Assembly (NCBI GenBank): GCA_012416205.1
Contig: GCA_012416205.1_3033.2
Direction: 5' to 3' (one strand)
Length of the DNA stretch: 64,000 nt
Source: a phage
Part shown: positions 3,014 to 56,800 of the stretch, piece by piece
Layout of the letters: every line of letters begins with the position of its first letter
Numbering within the stretch: position 1 is the first letter of the stretch
Notes under the pieces: generated by a model
Seen by the model: only the letters and a program-made list of their open reading frames with translations
Database searches by the model: none
Told to the model about the DNA's origin: nothing
Translations under genes and position numbers: made by a program

Positions 3014-3028
3014 TCTTTGACGATTTAA

Positions 3029-3044
3029 GGGACCTTCGGGTCCC
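3029..3044 (+). terminator. GC hairpin GGGACC-TTCG-GGTCCC followed by T-run after gene 23
   Basis: Perfect 6-bp stem with TTCG tetraloop followed by TTT directly after the gp23 stop. Confidence 0.6.
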
Positions 3045-3061
3045 TTTAGTTGTTTTTATGG

Positions 3062-3069
3062 TATAAATA
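3062..3069 (+). promoter_or_regulatory. Late promoter box TATAAATA upstream of gene 24
   Basis: Exact TATAAATA 27 bp upstream of the gene 24 ATG. Confidence 0.65.
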
Positions 3070-3096
3070 AATCATATAAACCAAAAGGAAAGCGCA

Positions 3097-5993: not shown

Positions 5994-7412
5994 TTATGGA
6001 TAGGTATAGATGATACCAGTTTCTAAAGCAGTTTTATGAATGATGTATCCATTACGTGATTCTTGAACATCAACTTCTGGATAGTCTTTCATCATTTTCT
6101 GAAGAGTGTAACGATGCAAGTAGTACTTACTATCTGGATCATCAGTTTTCCAATCTTTACCTTCTTCGGTCATTTTTTGGATTTCATCCATAACCCACCA
6201 ACCACACCAGATGTAAGCTGAAGTACGATGTGGAAGAGGATGAACATAAGGCAATTCACCTTCTGGTTCTGGAGCAACTTTATCAGTTACCTGAACTTGG
6301 CCTTCTGCTGTAATAGTTTTGCTATCATAATCAGCAGCAGTAACAGTTGCAGTAACTTCAATAGTTTGACTTCCAATAGATGAGGTATCAACGGTATATA
6401 CATTAGTTGACCCTTCTACAGGAGAAGAATCTTTCTTCCATGAATACGCAATTTGTGCTTCTTCTGGAGCATCAGTGACATTAGCGGTAAATGTAGCTGA
6501 AGCATCTTGCTGAACATTAATAGAAGGAGGAGTCAATGTAACCTGCGGATTCATTGTCTTCTTATTAACTGTTAATGATACTTCATTCGAAGTAACTTCC
6601 TTTTCATTGTAATTTTCAGCAGTTACTTGGGCTACACATTTAATTCGTTTTACTCCACTTGTAGTTGGAGTATAGCTAAATGTAGAGTTAGTTTCTCCAC
6701 CAACTTGTGAATCATCTACATACCACTGATACGTAGCAGATGCTCCATCAGGTTGAGAAGCTAAGGCAGCAGTAAATTGAACTGGGGTTCCAATTACTCC
6801 AGCTGAAGGACTATCGGGAGTTACTGCCAAAGTAGTTGTCTGTGTCTTTTTATTAACAGTCAGTGACACTTCATTAGAAGTAACTTCTTTTGCATCATAA
6901 TCTGTCGCGGTTACTTGAGCCACACACTTAATTGTTTTAACTCCGCTTGTGTCAGGAGTGTAATTGAATGTAGCGCTAGTCGCTTCGCTCACAGGAGAAC
7001 CGTCAACGTACCATTGATACGTAGCAGATGCGCCTAATGGCTGCGAAGCCAAAGCAGCGGTAAATTCAACAGCTGTTCCAATCACTCCAGCAGCAGGACT
7101 ATCAGGAGTTACTGCCAAGGTAGTTGTCTGTGTCTTATTTTGAACTGTGATAGTTGTAGTAGCTTCTGCTGTTTCAGCTTCAGTATCAGGAACTGGATTT
7201 GTTGCAACTACCTTAATAGTCTTTTGACCGGCAGGACCTTTTAGTACATAACTAAAAGTTGCTTCAGCCCCATCTTGTGGAACATCGTCTACAGTCCAAG
7301 CATATGTAATAGGTCCATCTCCAGTTTGACCACTGGGTGTAGCAGTAAACTGCTTAGTTTCATCAATAACTCCAGTAGGTGTTTTAGGAGTTATATCAAC
7401 TGTAAAAGCCAT
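5994..7412 (-). CDS. hoc: Highly immunogenic outer capsid protein Hoc with duplicated Ig-like domain
   Basis: 472 aa T/S/V-rich beta-type sequence with two near-identical ~95 aa tandem repeats; sits between 24.x and inh as in T4. Confidence 0.85.
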   Translation of the reverse strand: MAFTVDITPKTPTGVIDETKQFTATPSGQTGDGPITYAWTVDDVPQDGAEATFSYVLKGPAGQKTIKVVATNPVPDTEAETAEATTTITVQNKTQTTTLAVTPDSPAAGVIGTAVEFTAALASQPLGASATYQWYVDGSPVSEATSATFNYTPDTSGVKTIKCVAQVTATDYDAKEVTSNEVSLTVNKKTQTTTLAVTPDSPSAGVIGTPVQFTAALASQPDGASATYQWYVDDSQVGGETNSTFSYTPTTSGVKRIKCVAQVTAENYNEKEVTSNEVSLTVNKKTMNPQVTLTPPSINVQQDASATFTANVTDAPEEAQIAYSWKKDSSPVEGSTNVYTVDTSSIGSQTIEVTATVTAADYDSKTITAEGQVQVTDKVAPEPEGELPYVHPLPHRTSAYIWCGWWVMDEIQKMTEEGKDWKTDDPDSKYYLHRYTLQKMMKDYPEVDVQESRNGYIIHKTALETGIIYTYP

Positions 7413-7421
7413 AAGTTATCC

Positions 7422-8102
7422 TTATTTTAATGTTACGAAAGAAGAATTGCGTGTTTCACGAATTAGAACTGATCCGTCGCGATTAATGTAATAAATTAAG
7501 CTAAATAAAGTTTGGTGTGCCGACGCATGTTCAAAACTAGTTGGGTGAGATTTCCAATCCGGAGTTTCAGCAATCCACTGATAAATCCACCAAGGAACAG
7601 TACAGAATCCTGGATTTTTTCCAATCAGCTGAAGATTCGGACTAAAGTTTTCCGGAAGAGTAAATACAGACGGCTTTTCAGATTCAATAATCTCAGCTAC
7701 AGCCTTCTCGAATTTTTCTTCAACAAAAGGAGTATCTTCAATCAAAACATCGGTATTTTCGGGAATTTTATCCGTTTCGACTACTTCAATTTTAATGTCA
7801 GATTTAACTGGAGAATCAATCAGAAGTGCTGCCTCTGGATTGACTTCTTCATCGTCATATTTTAATCCGTCTGCGGCATCAGCAGCATCAATTAAGTCTT
7901 TAATAGATAACCCATCAGTCTCTGGCATAGGTTCACTAGCGAGCTTCTGGAGGGCTTCTTCAATATCAATAACGATATTATCAAAAGATTTATTCTTTTT
8001 GACCTTTATACCAAACTGTTCAGCATATTCAGCTAATTTAGCTTTAGCTTCTTTATTATCATCAAGAGCCTTCAGCTCTGCAATATAATCTTTATCTATC
8101 AT
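7422..8102 (-). CDS. inh: Inhibitor of prohead protease Inh
   Basis: 226 aa ORF adjacent to hoc, T4 Inh length and position. Confidence 0.7.
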   Translation of the reverse strand: MIDKDYIAELKALDDNKEAKAKLAEYAEQFGIKVKKNKSFDNIVIDIEEALQKLASEPMPETDGLSIKDLIDAADAADGLKYDDEEVNPEAALLIDSPVKSDIKIEVVETDKIPENTDVLIEDTPFVEEKFEKAVAEIIESEKPSVFTLPENFSPNLQLIGKNPGFCTVPWWIYQWIAETPDWKSHPTSFEHASAHQTLFSLIYYINRDGSVLIRETRNSSFVTLK

Positions 8103-8115
8103 AATATTTCCTCAG

Positions 8116-8123
8116 TATAAATA
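8116..8123 (+). promoter_or_regulatory. Late promoter box TATAAATA upstream of the GIY-YIG endonuclease gene
   Basis: Exact TATAAATA 28 bp upstream of the ATG at 8152. Confidence 0.45.
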
Positions 8124-8151
8124 TAGATATATTTATTACTCGGAAAATAGT

Positions 8152-8769
8152 ATGTACCACTTTGTATATGAAACAACAAATCTAATAAATGGTAAAAAGT
8201 ATATAGGAAAACACTCTACTGATGACTTGAATGATGGTTACCTTGGTTCCGGTAAGGCAATTCAGCAGGCTATAAAGAAATATGGTGAAAACAATTTCTC
8301 TAGAACAATACTAAAAGAGTTTAAAACTTCCGAAGAAGCGTACATGTATGAAGAAGAAATTATAACTCCTGAAATAATAAAAAGCAAAAATTATTATAAT
8401 ATGAAACCCGGTGGAATTGGTGGAATTGTTATGACTACAGAGGTTATAGCAAAGATGAAAGAATCTTCCGCTAAGAGATTTGAAAACTCACCGGGCACGG
8501 TATTAGGTACAACTTGTTACACTAATGGAACTAAAAATATTTTTATTAAACCTGGAGAACTTGTTCCAGAAGGATTTGTAAAAGGGATGGTTCATCCTAA
8601 TAGAAAGTCCAGAAAAGGATGTAAAGTCAAACCGACTACCACAGGAACTTTTTGGGTCAATAATGGTGCAATAAATAAATTAATACAGCCAGACGGTATT
8701 ATTCCCGACGGATTTATTAAAGGTCGTCTCATGAAAAGAGATTCTAAAGGCAAATTTAGTAAGGCATAA
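8152..8769 (+). mobile_element. Free-standing GIY-YIG homing endonuclease (Seg family, SegE-like position)
   Basis: N-terminal KYIGKHS...DGYLGSG...EF GIY-YIG module, 205 aa; inserted between inh and uvsW where T4 carries a seg gene. Confidence 0.8.
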
Positions 8770-8771
8770 TT

Positions 8772-10280
8772 ATGGATATTAAAGTACATTTTCACGACTT
8801 CAGTCATGTACGCATCGATTGTGAAGAGAGCACGTTCCACGAATTAAGAGATTTCTTTTCGTTTGAGGCCGATGGATATAGATTTAACCCTCGCTTCAGA
8901 TATGGCAACTGGGATGGACGAATCCGTCTTTTAGATTATAATCGTCTTCTTCCATTCGGCTTAGTCGGGCAAATTAAAAAGTTCTGTGATAACTTTGGCT
9001 ATAAAGCCTGGATTGACCCACAAATTAATGAAAAAGAAGAATTATCAAGAAAAGATTTTGATGAATGGCTTTCTAAATTAGAAATCTATTCAGGAAATAA
9101 AAGAATTGAACCACACTGGTATCAAAAAGATGCAGTGTTCGAAGGATTAGTTAATCGTCGTAGAATTCTTAATCTTCCAACATCTGCAGGTAAATCGTTA
9201 ATTCAAGCTCTGCTTGCTCGGTATTATTTGGAAAATTATGAAGGTAAAATTCTTATCATTGTTCCAACAACTGCTCTGACAACTCAGATGGCTGATGACT
9301 TCGTTGACTATCGTTTATTCAGTCATGCAATGATAAAGAAAATTGGTGGCGGAGCATCAAAAGATGATAAATATAAAAATGATGCACCAGTCGTTGTTGG
9401 TACATGGCAAACTGTAGTAAAACAACCGAAAGAATGGTTCTCACAGTTTGGAATGATGATGAATGATGAATGCCATCTTGCTACAGGAAAAAGTATTTCA
9501 TCTATCATATCAGGTTTAAATAACTGCATGTTCAAATTTGGTCTATCGGGTTCATTACGCGATGGCAAAGCCAATATCATGCAGTATGTTGGAATGTTTG
9601 GTGAAATATTTAAGCCAGTAACGACTTCTAAATTAATGGAAGATGGACAAGTAACTGAGTTAAAAATTAATAGTATTTTTCTTCGCTATCCCGATGAGTT
9701 CACTACTAAATTAAAGGGAAAAACTTACCAAGAAGAAATAAAAATTATTACTGGGCTCAGTAAAAGAAATAAATGGATCGCTAAATTAGCTATTAAACTT
9801 GCACAAAAAGATGAAAACGCTTTTGTCATGTTTAAACACGTATCGCACGGTAAAGCTATTTTCGATTTAATTAAAAATGAATACGATAAAGTTTATTACG
9901 TATCAGGGGAAGTTGATACCGAAACACGCAACGTAATGAAAACCTTAGCTGAAAACGGTAAAGGAATAATTATAGTAGCTAGTTATGGTGTATTTTCTAC
10001 TGGTATTTCAGTTAAAAATCTGCATCACGTTATTTTAGCACACGGTGTTAAATCTAAAATTATTGTATTGCAAACAATAGGTCGCGTATTACGTAAGCAT
10101 GGTTCTAAAACAATCGCAACAGTCTGGGACCTCATAGATGATTGCGGTGTTAAGCCAAAATCTGCTAATACGAAAAAGAAATACGTTCATTTGAACTATC
10201 TTTTAAAACACGGCATTGATCGTATTCAGCGCTACGCAGATGAAAAATTTAATTACGTAATGAAAACAGTTAATTTATAA
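8772..10280 (+). CDS. uvsW: UvsW DNA/RNA helicase
   Basis: 502 aa; Walker A-like PTSAGKS and DECH box (MMNDECHLATG); T4 UvsW length. Confidence 0.92.
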   Translation: MDIKVHFHDFSHVRIDCEESTFHELRDFFSFEADGYRFNPRFRYGNWDGRIRLLDYNRLLPFGLVGQIKKFCDNFGYKAWIDPQINEKEELSRKDFDEWLSKLEIYSGNKRIEPHWYQKDAVFEGLVNRRRILNLPTSAGKSLIQALLARYYLENYEGKILIIVPTTALTTQMADDFVDYRLFSHAMIKKIGGGASKDDKYKNDAPVVVGTWQTVVKQPKEWFSQFGMMMNDECHLATGKSISSIISGLNNCMFKFGLSGSLRDGKANIMQYVGMFGEIFKPVTTSKLMEDGQVTELKINSIFLRYPDEFTTKLKGKTYQEEIKIITGLSKRNKWIAKLAIKLAQKDENAFVMFKHVSHGKAIFDLIKNEYDKVYYVSGEVDTETRNVMKTLAENGKGIIIVASYGVFSTGISVKNLHHVILAHGVKSKIIVLQTIGRVLRKHGSKTIATVWDLIDDCGVKPKSANTKKKYVHLNYLLKHGIDRIQRYADEKFNYVMKTVNL

Positions 10281-10292: not shown

Positions 10293-10305
10293 TTTGGAGA
10301 AAAAG

Positions 10306-10536
10306 ATGTTACTAGAATTTAAACAATTTCTTTATGAAGCTTCTATTGATGAATTTATGGGTAAAATTGCCTCTTGTCAAACATTAGAAGGTCTAGAAGA
10401 ACTTGAAGCTTATTACAAGAAAAGAGTTAAAGAAACTGAATTAAAAGATACTGATGACATCTCTGTGAGAGATGCTTTGGCAGGAAAAAGAGCTGAATTA
10501 GAAGATTCAGACGATGAAGTAGAAGAAAGCTTTTAA
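10306..10536 (+). CDS. uvsW.1: Small acidic protein UvsW.1
   Basis: ORF from the first ATG (the track's 10294 start is a TTG); acidic C-terminus; position matches T4 uvsW.1. Confidence 0.6.
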   Translation: MLLEFKQFLYEASIDEFMGKIASCQTLEGLEELEAYYKKRVKETELKDTDDISVRDALAGKRAELEDSDDEVEESF

Positions 10537-19186: not shown

Positions 19187-21243
19187 TACATTTTGAACTT
19201 TTTAGACATTCCGTTGATGTTAACCAAAGAAGCCAAGATTTGAGAAACTTCGTTTTCCTCTTCTTTTGATTCTTCTACAAGGAATTGATTAAATCCAGCC
19301 ATTGGACGAACTTCACCAGTTTCCATTAGATGGTCGCCATCATATACCGATTCCTCTAATTGTTCAGAAGGAGGAACGATTGTACCTTCTATTAGATACT
19401 TGTTATAAGCAGTTTCTTTCATAAAGTACGTGCTCACTTTATTAATCTTCAGTAAAATTCCACGCGGTAGAATAACTTCAGCTTCTGATGGAAATCCTGA
19501 TAAATGACCTGGAACGATAACTTTGATTCGCTCAGCTCCTTTAATTACCATACCCACGCTAGTTTCAGCATCTTCATTAGCATATGTAGAATGACTACCC
19601 ATATGCATCAAATCTTCTGCATCAACGGAACCTTCTCCTTCGCCAGAAAATACTGCGCCGGAATCATCTAGAGCCATATAGTTTTTACCATGCTCACCGA
19701 AGATATTTGGTTTAAGCGATGTGGATACGAAGTTCTTGAAATAGAACATTTTATTTTCAATGTTATGACGCAAAGTTTTAAAGGTAACTTCTTGTCCACG
19801 GTAAAGTGTAGTTCCTGGAGGAAGAACTGAACCTTTAGCGAATGCAGAATCAAGCGTCTCAATATGTTTAATAGCTCGTTCCATATATTCTTCACGGGTA
19901 GAATCTGGTTTACCCAAAAGGAACGAGTTCATTTCAACATATGAATCTGCACAATAATCTTCAATTACATCAGACTCAGCCTGAGTTAATCCTTTTGGAG
20001 TTACTTCAGTACTTGCATATTCATATGCCTGAGCGGCAGATTCATTAATCAATTTATAAATGCCATTCATGACAAATTGAATAATAGCTGTCTTTTCATC
20101 TGGTGTAGCTTTAGAACCTTTAACTAAATCATTGATAATTTTCTTAATAACATCAAAGCTATTAGAAATATTAATGTCAGCAAGATCGCTTAAAATTTTA
20201 TCAGTTTTATAATCAAAGAATTCTTTATTCTTTAAATATTCTTGAGAACCTTGATATGTTATATCGCTCTGCAGCTTGATAGATGGATCGCGTAAACGTG
20301 CATGGGCCAATGCAATATGATTTCGGAAGTTTTCTAGTTCATAATCGTTAGATTTAAAACGAGAAGCACTTCTCATACCACCGATAGCTCCTTTGCTAAA
20401 GTTTGAACCAATCTGAATAACGCCAGAGTTCATCGGACCTTCTGCTTTATATACCGGAACTTTAGATTCAAACTCTTGATATTTCTTAGCAGCGAAGCTA
20501 TCACCCTGAAGTGAAGCATCGACAGTAGAATATTGAGCTTGTGCTGCTAATCGACGACTAATTTTAGTTTTCTGAATAACAGCTTGATCCGTGCGCTTAT
20601 CATTTTCTAAGGCAATAGAAGCAGCAACAGCAACAGCTTTAGGAACAGCATTACCTGTTTTAACATCCACATAAACATCACCAACCTTTGATTCAACTTT
20701 TGTGAATAACTCAGTTGAAATAGGAGGTACACCTGGAATGTCTTCTAAATTGGCATTTTTACGGTAAACCATAATATATGCATACTTTTTATCATAATCC
20801 CAGATTTCCTTTAAAAGAACATATCGACCTGCTCCTTTAGTACGTACTAAACGGTCAGCAATAACTTGCATTTGACGAGCTGCGCCATTTGTTTTACTTT
20901 TTAGTACGCGGAATAAGCATGCATCAATTTTATACTGTTTCATTGTTTGAAGAGCAGTATCAAAAACGGCATTAATGACACCAATTGGATTTCCACCTAA
21001 GTTTTTAAGTTTAACTAATGATAGTTTCTCATTGACACCTATCATTACGATATGCATCATTTTATCGCCTGGCTTAACGTTTTTATTCGTATCACCGCCA
21101 GAGGTGTATGTACAAAATCTAAATCCAGGAAGCACGCTTTCTTCACCGGCTTGAATAGCAAAAATTTGAGGTATTTTATGCTTAGGATTTAAGTTAACAA
21201 CCGGCGCCGAAGCGCCGTCAAATAATTCTGTAATAAGTTCCAT
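19186..21243 (-). CDS. Alt-like ADP-ribosyltransferase paralogue (T4 alt.-2 position)
   Basis: 685 aa; N-terminal ~220 aa and C-terminal domain (YRGQ, FVSTSL, EAEVILPRG: R-S-E ART motifs) parallel the adjacent alt product. Confidence 0.85.
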   Translation of the reverse strand: MELITELFDGASAPVVNLNPKHKIPQIFAIQAGEESVLPGFRFCTYTSGGDTNKNVKPGDKMMHIVMIGVNEKLSLVKLKNLGGNPIGVINAVFDTALQTMKQYKIDACLFRVLKSKTNGAARQMQVIADRLVRTKGAGRYVLLKEIWDYDKKYAYIMVYRKNANLEDIPGVPPISTELFTKVESKVGDVYVDVKTGNAVPKAVAVAASIALENDKRTDQAVIQKTKISRRLAAQAQYSTVDASLQGDSFAAKKYQEFESKVPVYKAEGPMNSGVIQIGSNFSKGAIGGMRSASRFKSNDYELENFRNHIALAHARLRDPSIKLQSDITYQGSQEYLKNKEFFDYKTDKILSDLADINISNSFDVIKKIINDLVKGSKATPDEKTAIIQFVMNGIYKLINESAAQAYEYASTEVTPKGLTQAESDVIEDYCADSYVEMNSFLLGKPDSTREEYMERAIKHIETLDSAFAKGSVLPPGTTLYRGQEVTFKTLRHNIENKMFYFKNFVSTSLKPNIFGEHGKNYMALDDSGAVFSGEGEGSVDAEDLMHMGSHSTYANEDAETSVGMVIKGAERIKVIVPGHLSGFPSEAEVILPRGILLKINKVSTYFMKETAYNKYLIEGTIVPPSEQLEESVYDGDHLMETGEVRPMAGFNQFLVEESKEEENEVSQILASLVNINGMSKKFKM

Positions 21244-21246
21244 GAT

Positions 21247-23340
21247 TTATCCTTGAACGAACTTGTAAGGCATGTTTGTAATATCTATGCAAGACGCAAT
21301 AATTCCAAGAGATGATTCTACTTTCTGTTTAACATTTGATGAAACAAATGATGCAAAGTCAACTCTGTCTTCTATTTCAATATCACCTGTCATTGCAACC
21401 AATTCACCAGTTTCCATTAAATGGTCTCCGTCATAGATTACCGATTCGGTGAGTTCTTCGGTGGTCATAACTTCAGCTTGAATGAGTTTTGTATTATTAG
21501 ACGTGGTTCCGTCATTATTAGAAGCATCAGTTATTTTATTAACTTTGACCATCAATCCGCGCGGTAGAATAACTTCAGCTTCTGTTGCTATTCCGAGATT
21601 TCCTGGATATACAACATTAACTTTATGAGCTCCATCAATTGCCCATCCTATTTGAACTTTAACGTATTCAGGATTTTCTTTATACGCTCTTATTTCGTTT
21701 GGATTAATAGTTATTCCTTCTTCATTTTTATCAACTGTTAATTCATTGCGAGCTTCTGGTTCTAAAAGACCAATACCAGCATGTGTAATTCCAAAACGTC
21801 CAAAAATGATAGGAGTTAAAGAAGTAGATACAAAATTTCTGAAGTAGAACACTTTATTTTTAACTAGTGCTTCGTATATAGGAGCAGTCATACTTTGAGC
21901 ACGATAAACTGTGATGCCTTCCGGTATGCGGTCACCATTTTCAAAAGCTGAATCTAAGTTATTTATAGCAGATTCAATTTCTTTTTCACTCATTACATCA
22001 TATCGTTCTGGATTGTAACGACCTAAAAGAAGATTATTGATGTCAGTATATCCTGAACCGCAATATTCTCTAATGCCACGCTTTTGTGATGGAGTATATT
22101 TAGAACCATCGCGGGCAATAGTAATATCAATCATTGGACCAGCACCAATTCCAGAAAAACTGTAAATCATTCGTTTGAGGAATTTAGTTTTTGCTGCGTT
22201 CCAGGAATTTTTAGTTATTTCTTCCCAGACTTCATCTGGTTGTCCTTTACGATTTTTATTATGATTAGCAAGCCATTTATCTTTATAATCTTCAAAGAAT
22301 TGATTTACAGCTGCTGCGTATTTCTCTAAACATTTTATTGAAGTAGTTGGTTCATTTTTAATTGCATTAAAAATTACTTCTTTAATTTTTTCTGAAACTT
22401 CACCGACTTGACTCATTGGAAAGAATTTATAATCATAGTGAAGTTCATCTGCCGTTCCTTCAGCAATAATTTTTGCTGCCTTTGTTTTAGAAGCTAATGA
22501 ATTAATTCCAATTTTCATTTCTTCTGCTTCGGGAATTAAAGGTGCAGTAGCTGGTTTATTAAAATTAGCTGCTGTAGATTCATACTTCTGGAATAATTCA
22601 CTTTCAAATCTAGAAGATTCCAATGACTGACTTTGTGCAATTGCTCTACGGGAAATTTTAACTTTAACGATTACAGCTTGGTCAGAACGTTTATCATTTT
22701 CTTGCGCAATAGATGCTGCAATTGCCTCATTTTTAGTTACTTGGGCTCCAGTATCTTTATTGATATAAACATCACCGACTTTCGATTCAACTTTAGTAAA
22801 GAGCTCGGTACTAATTTCCGGAACTCCTGGAATGTCTTCTAGTGATACATTTTTGCGATGTATAAGAATATATGCATACTTTTTATCATAATCCCAGAGT
22901 TCCTTAAGAAGGACGTATCTGCCACCTGAACGACTACGGATAAGTCTATCAGCAATAACTTGAATTTGTCGAGCTTGACCAGCGGTTTTAGACTTAAGAA
23001 TACGAAGCATACAAGCATCAATTTTATACTGACGCATTGTTTGCATTGCAACAGTAAAAACTGAATTGATATAATTAATTGGGCTTGGACCAAGACCTTT
23101 TAATTTAGCAATTGAACCTTTAGCAGTTAATGTAAAAGGAACAATATGCATCATTTTATCGCCCATCTTTAAATCGCGATTAGTATCACCTCCAGATGTA
23201 TAGGTACATAAACGAAAGCCTGGCTGTTCAATTGCATCATCAACGTGAACTGAAAAAATTTGCGGTATTTTCTTCTTTGGATTTAAGTTTGTAATCGGAA
23301 GAGTAGTATCTTCGTCAAATAATTCTGTAATAAGTTCCAT
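21247..23340 (-). CDS. alt: RNA polymerase ADP-ribosyltransferase Alt
   Basis: 697 aa from the second Met (better RBS spacing); recognisable Alt N-terminus MELITELFDEDTT; ART motifs YRAQ, FVSTSL, EAEVILPRG. Confidence 0.9.
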   Translation of the reverse strand: MELITELFDEDTTLPITNLNPKKKIPQIFSVHVDDAIEQPGFRLCTYTSGGDTNRDLKMGDKMMHIVPFTLTAKGSIAKLKGLGPSPINYINSVFTVAMQTMRQYKIDACMLRILKSKTAGQARQIQVIADRLIRSRSGGRYVLLKELWDYDKKYAYILIHRKNVSLEDIPGVPEISTELFTKVESKVGDVYINKDTGAQVTKNEAIAASIAQENDKRSDQAVIVKVKISRRAIAQSQSLESSRFESELFQKYESTAANFNKPATAPLIPEAEEMKIGINSLASKTKAAKIIAEGTADELHYDYKFFPMSQVGEVSEKIKEVIFNAIKNEPTTSIKCLEKYAAAVNQFFEDYKDKWLANHNKNRKGQPDEVWEEITKNSWNAAKTKFLKRMIYSFSGIGAGPMIDITIARDGSKYTPSQKRGIREYCGSGYTDINNLLLGRYNPERYDVMSEKEIESAINNLDSAFENGDRIPEGITVYRAQSMTAPIYEALVKNKVFYFRNFVSTSLTPIIFGRFGITHAGIGLLEPEARNELTVDKNEEGITINPNEIRAYKENPEYVKVQIGWAIDGAHKVNVVYPGNLGIATEAEVILPRGLMVKVNKITDASNNDGTTSNNTKLIQAEVMTTEELTESVIYDGDHLMETGELVAMTGDIEIEDRVDFASFVSSNVKQKVESSLGIIASCIDITNMPYKFVQG

Positions 23341-30866: not shown

Positions 30867-31099
30867 AGTACGCCATACACCCTTTGTGCTTCAACTAATC
30901 CATCAAAATCCAATTTGAGATGTGTTATTTGGTCACCATCACCTGGATTCACAATTACTAATACTGAACGAGGAGTTTCGGTAATAACACGAACCGATGT
31001 TTCTGGAAATCGTTCAGAAACCTTATTTACCAATTCCTGAGCAAATAGTTTAACTTTTTCTTGGAATTCTTTAACAGTAATCGGTTTTTCACTTAGCAT
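30863..31099 (-). CDS. Hypothetical protein (cd.2 position)
   Basis: 78 aa ORF. Confidence 0.5.
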   Translation of the reverse strand: MLSEKPITVKEFQEKVKLFAQELVNKVSERFPETSVRVITETPRSVLVIVNPGDGDQITHLKLDFDGLVEAQRVYGVL

Positions 31100-31620
31100 G
31101 TTGATCCCAGCTCCTTACTTTCAACGTTTTTAACTAATTTGACAGAAACTAATTCAGCATCTTGAGTAATCATTACCGGGCCTTCTTCATACTCTTCAAG
31201 ATATTCTAGAGCTTTCTTTTTAGCTTCTTCCTTCGTATCAGTTTGAGCATAGATATAGAACATACAACCAGTAATACCTACTACTTTCCACTTAATTTCT
31301 TTATCAGTTTTAATTTCAAATTTACTGATAGAGTCATCTTTTTGAACTTCTTCGAAAAAATAATATTCTGACATATAAGTAATTGAAAATAACGGGCTAT
31401 CTTTATAAGATTCGCCCATTACATCAACAGCTTTATACCAGCAGTCATCAATTTCACGTTTAATGCTAATAACATTTTTCGCAGAATCTATTTTTACTTT
31501 AAATGAATTTTCCCCAATAAACTTGGCAATTCGTTTATTAGCCCCGCAAGTTTCATTAAAAATATCTTTATATCCAGCTTTAAAGCGATAAACCTTATCT
31601 TCTTCAAACCATTTGCTCAT
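31093..31620 (-). CDS. Hypothetical protein (cd.3 position)
   Basis: 175 aa ORF. Confidence 0.5.
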   Translation of the reverse strand: MSKWFEEDKVYRFKAGYKDIFNETCGANKRIAKFIGENSFKVKIDSAKNVISIKREIDDCWYKAVDVMGESYKDSPLFSITYMSEYYFFEEVQKDDSISKFEIKTDKEIKWKVVGITGCMFYIYAQTDTKEEAKKKALEYLEEYEEGPVMITQDAELVSVKLVKNVESKELGSTC

Positions 31621-32161: not shown

Positions 32162-33576
<1,415 letters not shown>

Positions 33577-35008: not shown

Positions 35009-36596
<1,588 letters not shown>

Positions 36597-36604
36597 AATA
36601 AAAT

Positions 36605-36618
36605 GGGCCTTGCGGCCC
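36605..36618 (-). terminator. Hairpin GGGCC-TTGC-GGCCC between nrdB and denA
   Basis: Perfect 5-bp GC stem directly after the nrdB stop. Confidence 0.45.
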
Positions 36619-36623
36619 ACTCC

Positions 36624-37802
36624 TTAAAAATATTTTTTAAAACTCATCATAACTTTATCATCAACATCATTATCAATCTGTGCAACAAGGTAAGATGACA
36701 GTTCTACTTCTTGCGGTGCAGATTGAACATTATCAGAATTAAGATATTCACGAATCCAAGGATACGGGTGTTTAACCGGAGCATCGGTAATTGGGCATGG
36801 AAGACCACACTGTTTCATACGAGATACAGTTAAGTAATCAATAAAGCTCCACATGCTATTTGTATTTAATCCAGGAACATCACCATCTTTAAATAAATGA
36901 ACTGCCCAGTCTTTTTCCTGGCGGTTAACTTCCATGAAAATATCAACTGCTTCTTGTTCACACTCTTGAGCAATTTTAACCCATTCATCACCATCAGTGC
37001 CAAGTTGAAGTTGACGAATAATATATTGTGTGCCTTTAAGGTGAAGCTGTTCATCGCGTGCAATGAACTTCATAATCTTGGCATTACCTTCCATGATTTC
37101 CATGTTTTTATGGAAGTTAAAGGTACACGCAAAGGATACATAAAAACGAATAGCTTCCAATGCGTTGATTACATGCAGGCAGAGGTAAAGAGAGCGCATT
37201 AGTTCACGTTTCCAATACATTTCATGCTCTATGGCATCTTCAATAACGTCTTCGTCTGCATTAATTTCTTTTTGGTACTCAATATCAGCTTTAGCATTCT
37301 GCCAATATCTAGTTTTCTCAATAACATCATCATAATAACGACCAATAGATTCAGCACGTTTCATGATAGCTTTATCTAATACAATCTCATCAAATACCTT
37401 TGACGGATCAGTATAAAGATTTCGCATAATATGAGTGTATGAACGACTGTGAATAGTTTCACTAAAAGTCCATGTAGCAACCCATGTATCAAGGCTTGGA
37501 TCTGAAATTAATGACATAAGTACAGCAGACGGCGCACGACCCTGAATGCTATCTAGAAGTGATTGATACTTCAGGTTGTTAGTAAAAATATCTTGCTGAT
37601 ATTGAGGAAGCTTGTTAAATTGCGCAGCATCCATCATTAAGTTTACTTCTTCAGGGCGCCAGAAAAATGATAATTGCTTTTCGGTCAAATCTTCAAAAAC
37701 TTTATGGCGTTGAATATCATAACGCGCAATACCAAGGCCTGAACCAAAAAACATAGGTTCTTTTAAAACATCAACTGGATTTGTATTAAAAACTGTAGAC
37801 AT
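36624..37802 (-). CDS. nrdB: Ribonucleotide reductase small subunit, intronless
   Basis: 392 aa from MSTVFNTNPVDVL; continuous frame with no intron-sized interruption. Confidence 0.9.
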   Translation of the reverse strand: MSTVFNTNPVDVLKEPMFFGSGLGIARYDIQRHKVFEDLTEKQLSFFWRPEEVNLMMDAAQFNKLPQYQQDIFTNNLKYQSLLDSIQGRAPSAVLMSLISDPSLDTWVATWTFSETIHSRSYTHIMRNLYTDPSKVFDEIVLDKAIMKRAESIGRYYDDVIEKTRYWQNAKADIEYQKEINADEDVIEDAIEHEMYWKRELMRSLYLCLHVINALEAIRFYVSFACTFNFHKNMEIMEGNAKIMKFIARDEQLHLKGTQYIIRQLQLGTDGDEWVKIAQECEQEAVDIFMEVNRQEKDWAVHLFKDGDVPGLNTNSMWSFIDYLTVSRMKQCGLPCPITDAPVKHPYPWIREYLNSDNVQSAPQEVELSSYLVAQIDNDVDDKVMMSFKKYF

Positions 37803-38533
37803 TAATTTTTCCTCTTTAAAATTCTGCCGCGTTTCCAACCTGGCGGTATAATATCATCTTTACCTATAAGCGTGCATTCACTTCCATTATTAATCCATTT
37901 CTTACCGCGGATTCCTTTATAATCTCTTGGTTGTATTTTATCAAACTTTGCATCAAGTTGATATGACCATCTAAATCCATAGGCATATTGAAATTTACCC
38001 TCAGCACAATATTTGATATTTGACCCGTTTCCATTAACTGACCTGGACGCTGCCGCAATAGAGTGAAAGGTTTCTATGAAATCCCCATCTAATGAGAATT
38101 TATGTATTTCGATAGATGGGCATGCATACCTATTCACGTTTGATACATGTCGTTTAGTTTCGTTTTTATGATGCTTGCCTAACATTCCTCTAGGATGAGG
38201 ATTATTTTTCCAATATTTCTTAAAGAAATCAGAATTAGCTTTAGCAAATAATTTTCTGTGCAAGCTATACAATCTGTTATTAATTCTATTACCAGCTTTA
38301 TCTGTTGCCATTAACGTTAACGCAGAGGCAAGCCCAAAATGGCCTTCATTTATCTTACATAGTAATAGATGCGCTATAAAATGTTCTCTAGCTGTTAATT
38401 CAACTAAATTTTCTTTATCATCAGAACCTCCCATGCATTTAGGGACTATATGATGTGTCTCTTTATATTCGGATAAAGGTTCCCGAGCCTGAGCTCGGGA
38501 AATTAGGTCATTATAGATTTTTTGATAATTCAT
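37802..38533 (-). mobile_element. mobE: Free-standing HNH homing endonuclease between nrdA and nrdB (MobE-like)
   Basis: HNH motif HHIVPKCMGGSDDKENLVELTAREH; 243 aa; sits in the nrdA-nrdB intergenic position where T4 carries mobE. Confidence 0.75.
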
Positions 38534-40797
38534 TACAATTTACACGCTGCACAATCGTCGGCTTTAGGAGTTTCTATTTCATAATCATCAGTACCAGAAC
38601 CATCACGGGTATTATGATAATAGAAATTTTTAATGCCATAATACCATCCGTATAGCATGTCATCAATCATTATTGACATTGGAACCTTTCCTTTTGGAAA
38701 AATCTGCGGGTCATAATATGTATTCGCTGAAGCTGATTGACATACCCATTTAAGCATAATAGCTACTTGCGTAAGATAAGGTTTATTACCTTTCTTAGCT
38801 AATTTCCACGTATAATCATAGAGGTCTATGTTATGCTCAATATTGGGCACGACTTGATTAAAGGAGCCCTCTTTTGATTCTTTAACAGAGACTGGTCCAC
38901 GTGGAGGCTCGATACCGTTTGTACTGTTAGAAACTTGGGAAGATGACTCACATGGCATAAGTGCTGATAATGTGCTATTACGGATGCCAAAGAGCTTAAG
39001 GTCTTCCCGCAGCGACGACCAGTCACAAACGTATTTTGGAGCTGCGATTTGGTCAATCTTTTTATTGTACCAGTCGATAGGTAATTCGCCTCGAGACCAA
39101 CGAGTGTCTGAATAATATTCGCAAGGTCCTTTTTCTTTGGCGAGCTTAATGGATGCTTTAATGAGTCCATACTGTAATCTCTCAAATAGTTCATGTGTTA
39201 AATCGTTAGCATCTTCATAAGAAGCAAAGTTACTTGCCAGCCAAGCCGCATAGTTGGTAACACCTACACCGAGGTTACGACGCTTTTTAGCTTTTTCTGC
39301 TTCAGGAACTGGATATCCTTGGTAATCCAAAAGATTATCAAGAGCACGAACTTGAACTTCTGCCAATTCATTAATTTTATCTTGGTCTTGCCAATCGAAG
39401 TTATCCAGCACAAATGCAGATAACGTGCACAATCCAATTTCAGCATCGGGGCTATTCACATCATTTGTTGGAATAGCAATTTCACAGCACAAGTTACTCT
39501 GACGAATAGGTGCCTTTTCACGAATAAATGGAGTATAGTTATTCGTATTATCAATGAACTGTACATAAATCCTTGCTGTTCCTGAGCGTTCAGTCATGAG
39601 CAATTCAAACAGTTCACGGGCTTTAATGCGCTTTTTACGAATATTAGGGTCTTTTTCTGCTGCTTCATATAATTCACGGAAACGGTCTTGGTCTTTAAAA
39701 TAAGAATAATAAAGCTCGCCACCCATTTCATGCGGACTGAACAAAGTAATGTAATCGTTCTTTCCGAATCGTTCCATCATCAAATCATTCAGTTGAACAC
39801 CATAATCCATATGACGAATGCGGTTTTCTTCTACGCCTTTGTTATTTTTCAAAACGAGAAGATTTTCAACTTCCAAATGCCAAATAGGATAATAAGCAGT
39901 AGCAGCGCCGCCACGAATTCCACCCTGTGAACATGATTTAACTGCAGTCTGAAAATGTTTCCAAAAAGGAATAACACCAGTATGGCGTACTTCACCCATG
40001 CCAATCTTAGAACCTTCGGCACGAATCATACCAACGTTAATACCAATTCCAGCGCGTTTAGAGATATATTCAACAATTGAAGCGGAAGCCTTATTGATAG
40101 ACTTCAGCGAATCACCTGCCTCAATAACAACACATGAACTAAACTGTCGAGTCGGAGTACGACAACCAGCCATAATAGGAGTTGGCAGTGAAATCTGTCG
40201 AGTAGATACTGCTTCATAAAAACGGATAACATGTTTTAATCTATCAACAGGTTCATCTTGATGCAGTGCCATTCCAATAGCCATAAATGCAAACTGTGGA
40301 GTTTCATAAATTTGACCGGTGGTTTTATCTTTGACTAGATATTTTTCTTTTAATTGCATCGCTCCGGAATAAGTAAATTCCATATCCCGCTCGTGCTTAA
40401 TTTTTGATTCTAAAAATGTAATTTCTTCCGCAGAATATTTTGACAGCAGTTCAGGGTCATATTTCCCTTCATTTACGCAATAAGAAATATGGTCAATAAA
40501 TGAACGCGGTTCATACTGCCCGTAAACATGCTTACGAAGAGCAAACATTAAACAGCGTGCAGCTACATATTGATAATCAGGCTCTTCAACCGAAATAGAA
40601 TTCGCAGCAGCCTTAATGACAATAGTCTGAATATCATCAGTTGTCATTCCATCACGGAGATAAGATTTAATATTTTCATATAATTCATAAGGATCGACTG
40701 ATGTTCCTTCAGCTGCCCAAGATAAAACTTTAATAATTTTTTGTGGGTCAAAGCTCTGAGAAACACCACTACTTTTGATAACATTAATTAATTGCAT
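38533..40797 (-). CDS. nrdA: Ribonucleotide reductase large subunit
   Basis: 754 aa (T4 NrdA length); class I RNR features. Confidence 0.95.
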   Translation of the reverse strand: MQLINVIKSSGVSQSFDPQKIIKVLSWAAEGTSVDPYELYENIKSYLRDGMTTDDIQTIVIKAAANSISVEEPDYQYVAARCLMFALRKHVYGQYEPRSFIDHISYCVNEGKYDPELLSKYSAEEITFLESKIKHERDMEFTYSGAMQLKEKYLVKDKTTGQIYETPQFAFMAIGMALHQDEPVDRLKHVIRFYEAVSTRQISLPTPIMAGCRTPTRQFSSCVVIEAGDSLKSINKASASIVEYISKRAGIGINVGMIRAEGSKIGMGEVRHTGVIPFWKHFQTAVKSCSQGGIRGGAATAYYPIWHLEVENLLVLKNNKGVEENRIRHMDYGVQLNDLMMERFGKNDYITLFSPHEMGGELYYSYFKDQDRFRELYEAAEKDPNIRKKRIKARELFELLMTERSGTARIYVQFIDNTNNYTPFIREKAPIRQSNLCCEIAIPTNDVNSPDAEIGLCTLSAFVLDNFDWQDQDKINELAEVQVRALDNLLDYQGYPVPEAEKAKKRRNLGVGVTNYAAWLASNFASYEDANDLTHELFERLQYGLIKASIKLAKEKGPCEYYSDTRWSRGELPIDWYNKKIDQIAAPKYVCDWSSLREDLKLFGIRNSTLSALMPCESSSQVSNSTNGIEPPRGPVSVKESKEGSFNQVVPNIEHNIDLYDYTWKLAKKGNKPYLTQVAIMLKWVCQSASANTYYDPQIFPKGKVPMSIMIDDMLYGWYYGIKNFYYHNTRDGSGTDDYEIETPKADDCAACKL

Positions 40798-41351: not shown

Positions 41352-42212
41352 TTACACCGCCATCTTTCCTTTAATAGGAGGGTGTGATTCATAGTTGTTA
41401 AGAATAAAATTATGCGGCTTTGCGAATTGACTCAACCAAAATACCTGCGATTCTGTGTCCCATTCATCAAATTCATCTGGAAATTTTAATTGTAATTCGC
41501 ATAAATCCATAGGTTCACGACGCAAAATTTCTTTACATTGTTCTACGTGATTCATATAGATATGAGTATTACCGCCAGAAAATATCAAATCTCCCGGAAT
41601 AAGATTACACATCTTAGCTACAATATGAACTAACGTAGCATATGATGCAATATTAAATGGAAGACCGAGGAAAACATCTACTGATCGTTGATACCACTGA
41701 AGGTCAAGGTATCCATTACGAACATTAAATTGATAGAACATATGACAAGGCGGTAATGCCATATATTTAAGTTCAGCTGGATTCCATGCAGAAACAATTT
41801 GACGCCTATCATTTGGCAGTTTTTTAATACGATCAATAACTTCTATAATTTGGTCTACACCGCCAAAATCACGCCACTGTTTTCCATAAATTGGACCAAG
41901 TTCACCGCTATGGTATCCTAAATCTTTTGCTTGATTTTCGTAATTTTCATCCCAGACTGTTTTGCCTTGAATTAATGAATCATGTTGAATTAATCGCAAA
42001 TCATTGACATTTGTGCTTCCTGATAAAAACCATATTAGCTCAGCAATGCATGCGTTCCAGGCGAGCTTTTTAGTTGTTACTGCAGGAAAACCTTTGGTTA
42101 AATCCCAACGCAATTTAGTACCGAACAGAGCAATTGTTCCTGTGCCCGTTCGGTCATCGGTTTCATAGCCATTTTCAAAAATGTCTTTAATTAAATCTTG
42201 GTATTGTTTCAT
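41352..42212 (-). CDS. td: Thymidylate synthase, intronless
   Basis: 286 aa continuous ORF, the length of spliced T4 Td. Confidence 0.95.
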
Positions 42213-42257: not shown

Positions 42258-42605
42258 TCAATACGGTTTAGCATCAAATTTTCTCTCAATTTCAGGTGTG
42301 AAATATAATTCTTTACCGCGTTTGGAAAAACGACCAATAATATGATAATTATTCTCATCAAACGTGATATTACCAATATCCATAGCTTTCAACCAAATAT
42401 CAATATTTCTATCCAGCTTTATGTCAAAATTCCAATACGGAGAACTATTACCGAAAATACTGCAAGCGGATTCAGTGAAACAACTACTATAAATCTTGTC
42501 TTTAGGAACTACTAATTGATAAACGCCTTTAATAAACTGAGGACCCTGCCACTTTGGCTGTTTCTCATCTTTTTCTAATAGAATAGGGTAATAATTAAAA
42601 TTCAT
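42258..42605 (-). CDS. Hypothetical protein
   Basis: 115 aa ORF between frd and td. Confidence 0.5.
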   Translation of the reverse strand: MNFNYYPILLEKDEKQPKWQGPQFIKGVYQLVVPKDKIYSSCFTESACSIFGNSSPYWNFDIKLDRNIDIWLKAMDIGNITFDENNYHIIGRFSKRGKELYFTPEIERKFDAKPY

Positions 42606-45735: not shown

Positions 45736-45834
45736 TTTTATTTCCTTTTTAATTTAATTAACAGTTGGTGCTATGACGATGTATGACCTCATAGCTGGTC
45801 AGTGAGATAATTATAATCTATTTATAATAAGCAA

Positions 45835-53827: not shown

Positions 53828-56800
53828 ATGGCTACTTTAAAACAAATACAATTTAAAAGAAGCAAAACTGCAGGTCAACGTCCTGCTGCTTCAGTATTAG
53901 CCGAAGGTGAATTGGCTATAAACTTAAAAGACCGTACTCTTTTTACTAAAGATGACTCGGGAAATATTATTGATTTAAGCATTACCGCTGGCGGTAATAT
54001 TAGTGGAAATATCACTCAAACTGGCGATTATACACAGACTGGAAAATTTAATTTAATTGGTCCGCAAATTGTAGCAAGCGGTGGATATATTGAGTTTAAT
54101 TATCGTACTACTGGAAGTGGGGCTTGGTCTGGTCAACACACTGCAAAAGCTCCAATTTTTGTAGATTTAAGCTCAGCTACTTCCACATCTGAATATAATC
54201 CTATAATTAAACAGCGCTTTAAAGATGGAACTTTTTCATTAGGTACTTTAGTTTCTGAAGGTTCGTTGAAGATTCATTATATCAATGAATCTGGCGATTC
54301 GAAATATTGGACGTTTCGACGTGACGGCGGATTTGTTGTTGACGGTGGAGGTTTAGCAGTATCAGGAGGTAGTATAACTACATCTGGAAATATTGCAGCT
54401 CTCGGAAATATTACTTCGCCTCAGATTAATACTAAAAATATTATTTTAGATACAAAAGCATTTGGACAATACGATTCGCAATCATTAGTTCAATATGTTT
54501 ATCCTGGAACAGGTGAAGAAAATGGTATAAACTATCTTCGTAAAGTTCGAGCTAAATCAGGCGGAAGCATTTACCATGAAATCGCTTCAGCTCAAACCGG
54601 TAAAAATGATGAAATTTCTTGGTGGACCGGAAATACACTTACTACTAAATTAATGGGTCTTCGTAATGATGGCGCAATGGTATTACGTCGTTCACTTGCT
54701 ATTGGCACAATTACCACTGACGAAAATACTAACAACTATGGTTCTCCTACTCCAATGGGAGAAAGATATATTGCTTTGGGCGATGCTGCCACTGGTTTAA
54801 AATACATTAAGCAGGGTGTTTATGATTTAGTAGGTAATTGGAATTCTGTTGCTTCTATTACTCCTGATAGTTTCCGTAGTACTCGTAAAGCGTTATTTGG
54901 ACGTTCAGAAGACCAAGGCGGAACCTGGACAATGCCTGGAACGAACGCTGCCTTTTTATCAGTTCAAACACAGGCTGATGAAAACACTGCTGGAGACGGC
55001 CAGACGCATATTGGCTATAACTCAGGCGGAAAAATGAACCACTATTTCCGTGGTAAAGGCAAAACTAATATTAATACTCAGGAAGGTATGGAAGTTAATC
55101 CGGGTATTTTGAAATTGGTAACTGGCTCTAATAACGTACAGTTTTATGCCGACGGAACAGTATCTTCAATACAAAGAATTAAATTTGATAACGGATTAGT
55201 TCTTACTGGTGCTAGACCCGACGGTATTCAACTTGACGCTCCTACAGCAACAGATGGCACTAAAACTATATTGTGGGCCGGCGGTACTCGCCCAGGTCAG
55301 AATAAAAGTTATCTATCTATCAAAGCATGGGGTAATGCCTTTAATGCATCTGGCGATCGTGCTCGTGAAACAGTTTTTGAAGTATCAGATGGACAAGGTT
55401 ACCATTTTTATTCTCAACGAGTTGCTCCCGGATCAGGTTCTACCGTCGGACCTATTCAATTTCGAGTTAATGGTGGTTTATTAACTTCTGGTGGTATTAC
55501 ATCATCTGGTTCTATTGTTACTGAATCAAGTTTAGTTGCAAATAATGGATTATCTGTAAATGGTCAGGCTAAATTCGGTGGAACGGCAGATGCATTAAGA
55601 ATTTGGAATGCCGAATACGGTGCTATTTTCCGTCGCTCAGAAACAGCATTGCATATTATCCCGACTCCTAAAGATGCCGGTGAAAGTGGTGGAATAAGTA
55701 ATCTCCGCCCGTTAAGTATTAGTCTTAATAATGGTATGGTACAAATGCGCCATTCTGTTACGTTAGGCGATGATGGCGCTGGCGGTAATATGATTACTGT
55801 GGACAACGATACCAAACTTGTTGTTGTTACTAGTAATAGTCGTATTTCTCCTAATTTCAGAATGCAATTAGGACAAAATTCTTATATAGATATCGAGGCT
55901 TCTGATGGCGTTCGCCCAGCAGGGTGTGGTTCATTTGCATCCCAGAATGACGTAAACGTCAGAGCTCCAATTTATATGAATATAGAGCGTACTGCTGCTT
56001 CTGAATATATCCCTATTATCAAACAACGTTACGTACAAGGTGATAGTACTTATTCTATTGGTACCTTAATTTCTCAAGGAGACTTCCGTGTCCATTATCA
56101 CCAGGGTACTAGTACTACCGGAACTGATTTAAGCTGGGAATTCCGTCGAAATGGTGATTTCCGCGCGACAGGTAAAATTATTGCCGGTGCTGCTACTTTT
56201 GGCACTGATGGCAATATTACGGGTGGTTCAGGAAACTTTGCTAACTTAAACAGTACAATTGAATCACTTAAAACTGATATTGTTTCAAGTTATCCTATTG
56301 GAGCTCCAATTCCATGGCCAACGGATACTCCTCCTGACGGTTACGCTATTATGGAAGGTCAGACTTTTGATAAGTCTGCATATCCAAAGCTAGCTGTTGC
56401 ATATCCTAGCGGTGTTATTCCAGATATGCGCGGGCAGACTATCAAGGGTAAACCAAGCGGTCGTGATGTTTTGAGCGCAGAAGCAGACGGTGTTAAGGCT
56501 CATAACCATAGTGCATCGGCTTCAAGTACTGACTTAGGCACTAAAACCACGTCAAGTTTTGATTATGGTACTAAGACAACAAGTAGCTTCGACTATGGTA
56601 CTAAGACCAGCAATACCACTGGTGACCATGCTCATAATAGAGGTAACATGGAAATTTCTGGTGTGTTTGGTTGGTTCAGAAGTGATAGTAGTGCATTCTA
56701 CACTGCTAGTGGTGCATTCGTGATGGGTAGTAGTCAGGGTTCACATGGTTTCACAGGTTCTAACTTCACTAATGGTGCTCCTGTTGATTTTCGCGCGTCA

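Follow-up and report, generated by a model that had tools for sequence, protein, structure and literature searches.

Two known homing endonuclease genes, segE and the RB3-type mobE, in a T4-like phage genome segment with intronless td and nrdB

Introduction

The free-standing genes segE and mobE are classic cases of intronless homing in the T-even phages. In the T4 record, segE is found at positions 112057-112674, between inh and uvsW. In Table 1 of a published review, SegE is listed as active, inserted at inh/uvsW and with uvsW as its target gene (PMC2988022). The passage on SegE in PMC2330249, which cites Kadyrov et al. 1997, presents the protein as a site-specific endonuclease and reports that segE homes into the segE-less phage RB30 with an efficiency of nearly 100%; according to the same passage, this homing depends on DNA homology and on the gene being intact, and the flanking markers are co-converted. 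The location given for the SegE site varies slightly between the published statements consulted, which place it, in phages without segE, either at the uvsW 5' end or in the spacer between inh and uvsW (PMC2330249; PMC2988022).

The mobE gene of T4 is promoterless and co-transcribed with nrdA, and its expression is limited by an internal terminator, a hairpin that was mapped in the T4 gene with an efficiency of about 30% (PMC2790892). Its product nicks phage T2's nrdB gene at codon 42 in a strand-specific manner, and mobE is inherited at high frequency (PMC2790892).

In this work we analysed a stretch of 64,000 nucleotides of phage DNA, which we refer to as the window. A preliminary description of it, made from the sequence alone, had reported a GIY-YIG and an HNH endonuclease ORF in a genome with continuous td and nrdB genes. 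In that description the ORFs were not recognised as the named genes segE and mobE, the HNH gene being the RB3 allele and not the T4 one. We conclude that what the window carries is, very probably, two already characterised selfish genes in a T4-like phage, segE and the RB3 allele of mobE, whose cleavage, homing and expression timing would be those published for T4 and RB3. Both are named and studied homing genes, found here at the places that they occupy in T4 and RB3. The window adds one more carrier of each gene, and little beyond a correct annotation.

Results and discussion

The window and its closest relatives

The window is a T4-like (Tequatrovirus) segment. Its gene order (21, 22, 23, 24, rnlB, hoc, inh, uvsW, uvsY, 25 ... 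rnlA, denA, nrdB, nrdA, td, frd, 32, 59 ... 34) is that of T4 between about 103.5 kb and 166.5 kb, and the alignment with T4 presented 94-97% identity across most of the window length. The search of the GenBank phage collection gave no record identical to the window. In that collection, the best relative of the inh-uvsW region was Citrobacter phage CrRp10 (99.4%), and the best relative of the 20-45 kb stretch was Escherichia phage JLBYU24 (97.7%). Different closest relatives for different regions constitute the mosaic pattern that is usual for Tequatrovirus. The features on which the analysis was centred are listed in Table 1.

Table 1. Positions in the window of the segE and mobE loci, their signals and neighbours, and the td gene.
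Feature	Position	Strand	Description
inh (hoc.1)	7422..8102	-	divergent upstream neighbour of segE; size and position as in T4 inh
T4-type late promoter box TATAAATA	8116..8123	+	exact match; identical in T4
segE cassette	8140..8911	+	approximate extent relative to empty-site phages: segE leader, segE and diverged first ~140 nt of uvsW
segE	8152..8769	+	free-standing GIY-YIG homing endonuclease gene, 205 aa
uvsW	8772..10280	+	helicase gene, downstream neighbour of segE; corresponds to T4 uvsW
nrdB	36624..37802	-	continuous, 392 aa from ATG, without group I intron
mobE, RB3-type allele	37802..38533	-	free-standing HNH homing endonuclease gene, 243 aa
Stem-loop in the 5' end of mobE	38480..38501	-	same sequence as the weak intrinsic terminator that was mapped in the T4 gene
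TAATGA, nrdA stop over mobE start	38530..38535	-	same arrangement in T4 mobE (PMC2988022)
td	41352..42212	-	continuous, 286 aa, without group I intron and without I-TevI

segE and its neighbours

A GIY-YIG ORF between inh and uvsW, ending 2 bp before the uvsW start, had been reported in the preliminary description, and this gene was recovered here with clear family matches. Its product matched the Pfam family SegE_GIY-YIG (E 3e-9; 37.6 bits with a cut-off of 25) and PHROG 314, "homing endonuclease" (8.7e-44); the score against the general Pfam GIY-YIG family was 20.9 bits, slightly below the cut-off of 22.6. The alignment with T4 SegE was gapless, with 202 of the 205 residues identical (E 2e-154), and the segE DNA together with the whole upstream spacer presented 99% identity to T4. 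The likeness extends to the surroundings, since the lengths of the two genes are equal, segE keeps the T4 distances of 49 bp to the start of inh (8102) and 2 bp to the uvsW ATG (8772), the upstream spacer with TATAAATA is identical and the 5' end of uvsW is diverged in the same way. Judged by these sequence comparisons, the gene is an ortholog of T4 segE.

The three residues that differ from T4 (I75L, E97D and T120K, relative to T4) are conservative changes, and nothing functional can be drawn from them. They correspond to three non-synonymous changes among the nine nucleotide differences, the other six being synonymous; the resulting pN of 0.006 is lower than the pS of 0.047, which argues for purifying selection and not for decay.

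Loss of catalytic residues was looked for on alignment in both endonucleases, and the motifs were found intact. In SegE, residues Y6, Y17, E68 and N83 align with positions of the catalytic core of I-TevI, the GIY-YIG enzyme of the T4 td intron, where the last two correspond to E75 and N90. However, the identity with I-TevI is only 30%, a 9-residue segment with R27 of I-TevI is missing from SegE in the alignment, and I-TevI is encoded in an intron whereas SegE is free-standing. A sequence search against solved structures gave nothing useful for SegE or MobE. We took a match of SegE to a tail tube protein (0.015) as due to chance. We also ruled out segD as the identity of the gene at inh/uvsW: segD is located between 23 and 24 in T4 and is absent from the window, where the gap between these genes is of about 80 nt (3014-3096) and T4 has 789 nt more.

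The product of the downstream neighbour presented a Pfam UvsW_N domain (8.3e-44) and helicase domains. As a separate observation, uvsW encodes 502 aa in the window and is followed by an independent ORF of 80 aa (10294-10536, + strand), whereas the T4 reference has a single uvsW of 587 aa, with sequence discrepancies flagged in that section.

mobE, an RB3-type allele

The HNH ORF that had been reported in the gap between nrdB and nrdA was also found, and it fills this gap. The protein of 243 aa matched PHROG 655, "homing endonuclease" (1.3e-57), and Pfam NUMOD1 above the cut-off (1.1e-5, residues 147-177); the score against Pfam HNH was 19.2 bits, below the cut-off of 21.4. The HNH motif has its H28, N42 and H51, and residues 24-54 align with the same motif in a maturase of a group II intron. 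The ORF had also been said to overlap the start region of nrdB. An overlap exists, although it comprises a single base, where the mobE stop runs over the nrdB ATG (TAATG); the larger overlap appears only with a mechanical TTG start at 37838.

The comparison with RB3 MobE gave 242 identical residues out of 243 (99.6%), with the AY262130 entry and with the RB3 genome alike. The RB3 gene (AY262130 / KM606994 RB3_226) has, in addition, the same nrdA and nrdB junctions and the same internal hairpin. Both phages differ in their introns, since RB3 carries an nrdB intron with an intact I-TevIII and a td intron with I-TevI, and neither of them is present in the window.

What the gene has in common with T4 mobE is its junction, the overlap with nrdA at TAATGA, an internal terminator and the HNH N-terminus. 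Near-identity to T4 covers the final ~35 nt of nrdA, the TAATGA and ~190 nt at the start of mobE, and 57 of residues 1-59 are identical. In contrast, the DNA from that point to nrdB cannot be aligned, and the protein sequences are unrelated after about residue 105. The C-terminal, DNA-binding half is not homologous to that of T4 MobE, with NUMOD1 here and NUMOD3 in T4 and T6; in T4, NUMOD3 is carried by the nrdB.1 segment, in a reading frame that matches the C-terminus of the contiguous T6 MobE (213 aa). Another difference is found in the flanking nrdB 5' end, which in the window is like that of T2, a phage without mobE, and not like that of T4. We also considered a kinship between the C-terminus of the RB3-type MobE and I-TevIII, the neighbouring intron endonuclease in RB3, and rejected it, as there was no meaningful similarity beyond the HNH motif.

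A side observation concerns the T4 reference itself (139716-140416), in which a mobE of 141 aa and a separate nrdB.1 of 83 aa are annotated. Because the third reading frame of this stretch matches the C-terminus of T6 MobE, the T4 mobE must be either frameshifted or mis-sequenced in the reference.

The stem-loop in the 5' end of mobE has a stem of 9 bp and a loop of 4 nt, lies about 27 nt into the coding region and presented a folding energy of -16.7 kcal/mol (z -3.6). These values come from direct folding; the generic scan for promoters and terminators missed the hairpin because of its short U-tract. By analogy with T4, mobE would be co-transcribed with nrdA, the TAATGA overlap would probably couple the translation of the two genes, and this weak internal terminator would damp mobE expression. 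Within mobE there is also a candidate middle promoter for nrdB, formed by a MotA-box-like GCTTATA (37865-37871) and a TATTAT (37848-37853).

Regarding the distribution of the gene, this mobE allele was present in 58 records of the GenBank phage collection, and T4, T6 and some others carried the T4 allele. Most of the remaining sampled records presented an empty nrdA/nrdB junction, 679 bp shorter, including CrRp10, which is the closest relative of the window at the segE locus. The scans of IMG/VR gave a single close locus of the RB3 type and three with an empty site; given these low numbers, the junction samples were drawn from the GenBank phage collection. An nrdA/nrdB insertion of another size was observed in Escherichia phage ECO07P2 (OP172785, 86037-87727), with a match span of 1691 bp and an annotated DNA adenine methylase.

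The target of the RB3-type MobE

The preliminary description had placed the cleavage sites of both endonucleases in neighbouring genes of endonuclease-free relatives, and the published targets agree with this, being the uvsW 5' end or spacer for T4 SegE and nrdB codon 42 for T4 MobE. By analogy with the T4 enzyme, the MobE of the window would nick the neighbouring nrd gene of mobE-less phages, and mobE would spread by gene conversion. T4 MobE, by nicking T2 nrdB, also mobilises the defunct I-TevIII intron in trans; the window differs in having no neighbouring intron to mobilise.

The RB3-type allele may, however, have another target than that of T4. In T4, nt 40-150 of nrdB are strongly diverged from T2, a divergence that has been proposed to protect T4 (PMC2790892); the window is nearly the same as T2 in this tract. 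To this we added a comparison of nrdB nt 1-210 in 17 genomes, seven with the RB3-type mobE, two with the T4-type gene and eight with an empty junction. JLBYU24 and G9062, both RB3-type, showed no difference from T2 throughout nrdB nt 7-146. Aplg8, also RB3-type, presented a T6-like nrdB haplotype, and RB33 and phiD1, with empty junctions, presented T4-like changes. In these 17 genomes, the nrdB polymorphisms around codon 42 did not separate the phages with mobE from those without it. This mixture of haplotypes indicates that the nrdB 5' haplotype and the mobE state are unlinked in this sample. Furthermore, since JLBYU24 and G9062 are identical to T2 at the site nicked by T4 MobE, the self-protection of T4 by a polymorphism of the target is not obviously applicable to phages of the RB3 type. 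As far as the sequences can tell, either another site would be used by the RB3-type enzyme or the carrier would not be spared through this polymorphism.

An alternative to a simple transfer of the T4 scheme is, then, that after an exchange of the DNA-binding half the RB3-type MobE recognises a DNA site other than that of T4 MobE, or that it cuts carrier and non-carrier DNA alike. We consider this a real possibility, although we lean against it. It agrees with the fact that only the first ~190 nt are common to T4 mobE, with the presence of NUMOD1 in the place of the NUMOD3 of T4 nrdB.1, with the absence from the window of the divergence seen in T4 nrdB nt 40-150, and with the lack of segregation between the nrdB 5' haplotype and the mobE state. 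Against it, the RB3-type mobE occupies the same junction as the T4 allele and shares with it the left border, in the last ~35 nt of nrdA, and the published logos, in which all the mobE-containing phages were pooled, still led to nrdB codon 42 being proposed as the site (PMC2790892). Moreover, the synonymous G117 and A129, which flank codon 42, were found in four of the seven RB3-type genomes and in one of the eight empty ones (L078), and they could matter. A more specific version, in which the RB3-type mobE would be the HNH head of T4 on an unrelated NUMOD1 tail, either a natural domain swap that retargets the nuclease or a nuclease that does not discriminate between carrier and non-carrier DNA, we put forward tentatively and regard as less likely than not. 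In any case, two mobE alleles with one nuclease head and different DNA-binding halves are a natural test case for target change, or loss of discrimination, in HNH endonucleases.

The inh/uvsW junction and the origin of the promoter

Both the inh/uvsW and the nrdA/nrdB junctions are insertion points of homing endonuclease genes known in T-even phages, as had been stated in the preliminary description; the annotation of T4 and RB3 and Table 1 of PMC2988022 place segE at the first and mobE at the second. We looked for relatives with identical junction content throughout and found that both junctions differ between relatives. A query of 1.6 kb spanning the segE junction was fully covered in 159 records, including T4, T6, RB3 and PST, which amounts to about 159 carriers of segE among roughly 500 close genomes of the GenBank phage collection. 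Every sampled record with 93-96% identity and 60% coverage aligned in two pieces, with a span of 985 bp compared to 1601. T2, RB32, RB27 and RB18 are among these records and present a precise empty site, 616 bp shorter.

The same phages inform on the promoter. The preliminary description had attributed to the GIY-YIG ORF a late promoter of its own. The box TATAAATA is indeed present upstream of segE, 28 nt separating it from the ATG, and no further exact copy was found in segE and its surroundings. The octamer is not rare in this A+T-rich DNA, and the window contains 15 copies of it when 9.05 +/- 2.6 are expected; the motif alone is thus weak evidence, and its weight comes from its position and not from its occurrence. 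What did not stand is the origin of the promoter. T2, RB32 and RB27, which have no segE, have in common with the window the start of inh, the spacer, TATAAATA and the next 16 nt, up to position 8139, and all the 30-nt bins of inh but one presented 27-30 identities out of 30 in the comparison with segE-less phages up to this break. Past 8139, these three phages continue with ATGGTATTTAGAC followed directly by the uvsW ATG, and the window continues with TCGGAAAATAGT followed by the segE ATG. As the box and its 16 nt are identical there and lie directly upstream of uvsW, TATAAATA should be the uvsW late promoter in segE-less phages; expression of UvsW from a late promoter has been reported (PMC3016281). 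These alignments show that segE is inserted downstream of a pre-existing uvsW late promoter, that is, that the promoter was captured and is not its own. Since segE now stands between that ancestral promoter and uvsW, it would be transcribed from it, and a single late message probably covers both segE and uvsW in the carriers.

One could think instead that the late promoter is part of the segE cassette and arrived along with segE, uvsW having another promoter for its expression. No promoter-like element upstream of segE is closer to it than TATAAATA, and the review describes segE as transcribed from a promoter in the upstream non-coding region, with promoters of downstream genes embedded in segE (PMC2988022). 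Yet we find this explanation improbable, given that the break between sequences with and without segE falls downstream of the box, that phages without segE (T2, RB32 and RB27) run from the identical box and its 16 bases straight into uvsW, and that no other exact box exists in or near segE.

Returning to the captured promoter and its insert, the segE-containing sequence does not end at the segE stop. The first 150 nt of uvsW presented about 77% identity to RB32, T2 and RB27 (116/150 for RB32), and the later 30-nt bins returned to 26-30 identities out of 30. In the comparison with RB32, nt 1-150 accumulate 22 synonymous changes over 26 synonymous sites (pS ~0.85) and 12 non-synonymous changes, while nt 151-810 accumulate 13 synonymous changes over 137 sites (pS 0.095) and no non-synonymous change. 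So deep a divergence suggests that the segment and segE arrived together from a more distant source, accumulation in place being unlikely. The segE-type uvsW tract was found at an identity of at least 95% in 158 records, compared with the 159 carriers of segE, and the empty-type tract, at a query coverage of at least 80%, in 345 records, the correspondence between tract and segE being one of record counts and not of individual records. These counts fit a target site located at the uvsW 5' end and altered in the carriers, and most likely the diverged tract makes the carrier a poor substrate for SegE.

By orthology with T4 SegE, the enzyme would be made late in infection and would cut co-infecting relatives that lack segE at, or close to, the uvsW 5' end. 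As the cut genome is repaired by recombination with the segE-containing one, segE and the flanking DNA would then be copied into it, and the spread of segE would be a case of homing with marker exclusion. The segE locus illustrates in this way the capture of host regulation and the dragging of flanking sequence between phages.

There is a further explanation for both genes, that segE, mobE or the two have become inactive and are decaying, their overlap with regulatory signals of essential neighbours being all that keeps them in place; decay after fixation is common among homing endonuclease genes, as illustrated by the defective I-TevIII of T4 itself, and the Pfam HNH and GIY-YIG scores are slightly below the curated cut-offs, but we hold decay to be very unlikely, with both ORFs at full length, both loci still polymorphic and not fixed, SegE only three residues away from the experimentally active T4 enzyme with synonymous changes predominating, and MobE one residue away from that of RB3 with its HNH residues in place.

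Introns and other endonuclease genes

The claim that td and nrdB are intronless was borne out by the alignment with T4. The 598 nt of the T4 nrdB intron are missing exactly at 37126/37127 of the window, and the 1017 nt of the T4 td intron are missing exactly at 41663/41664. The third intron of T4, that of nrdD, falls outside the window, and therefore the term intronless applies to td and nrdB only. The window lacks I-TevI and I-TevIII together with their introns. In the same way, segG is absent, with 32 and 59 adjacent (45736-45834) where T4 has 623 nt more. The window encodes one more GIY-YIG protein, denA (36186-36620), which is no homing enzyme but endonuclease II. Free-standing endonucleases together with intronless td and nrdB are common in the sequenced relatives, many of which gave single-piece, full-length matches.

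Other differences from T4

Apart from the homing genes, some regions of the window depart from T4. The Hoc protein (5994-7412, - strand) has 472 aa compared with 376 aa in T4; the alignment of hoc with T4 presented an extra copy of one internal repeat, of about 300 nt, and a hoc gene of 1419 nt is also found in RB27. The alt region (19206-22533) occupies about 3.3 kb compared with about 1.6 kb in T4, with 69-80% identity, and in the annotation of the relatives it contains two Alt-like ADP-ribosyltransferase genes. In the distal part of the long-tail-fibre gene 37 (54441-56575), the identity to T4 falls to 74-75%, with gaps that cannot be aligned, the flanks presenting 94-96%.

Three small ORFs were also observed, all on the - strand. 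An ORF of 115 aa (42258-42605) separates td from frd, two genes that in T4 overlap directly; this ORF had no Pfam match and belongs to PHROG 1928, of unknown function. Two others have no counterpart at the corresponding T4 position: an ORF of 175 aa at the cd.2/cd.3 junction (31093-31620; PHROG 3710, function unknown) and an ORF of 106 aa at the pseT/pseT.1 junction (33256-33576; PHROG 2364, function unknown).
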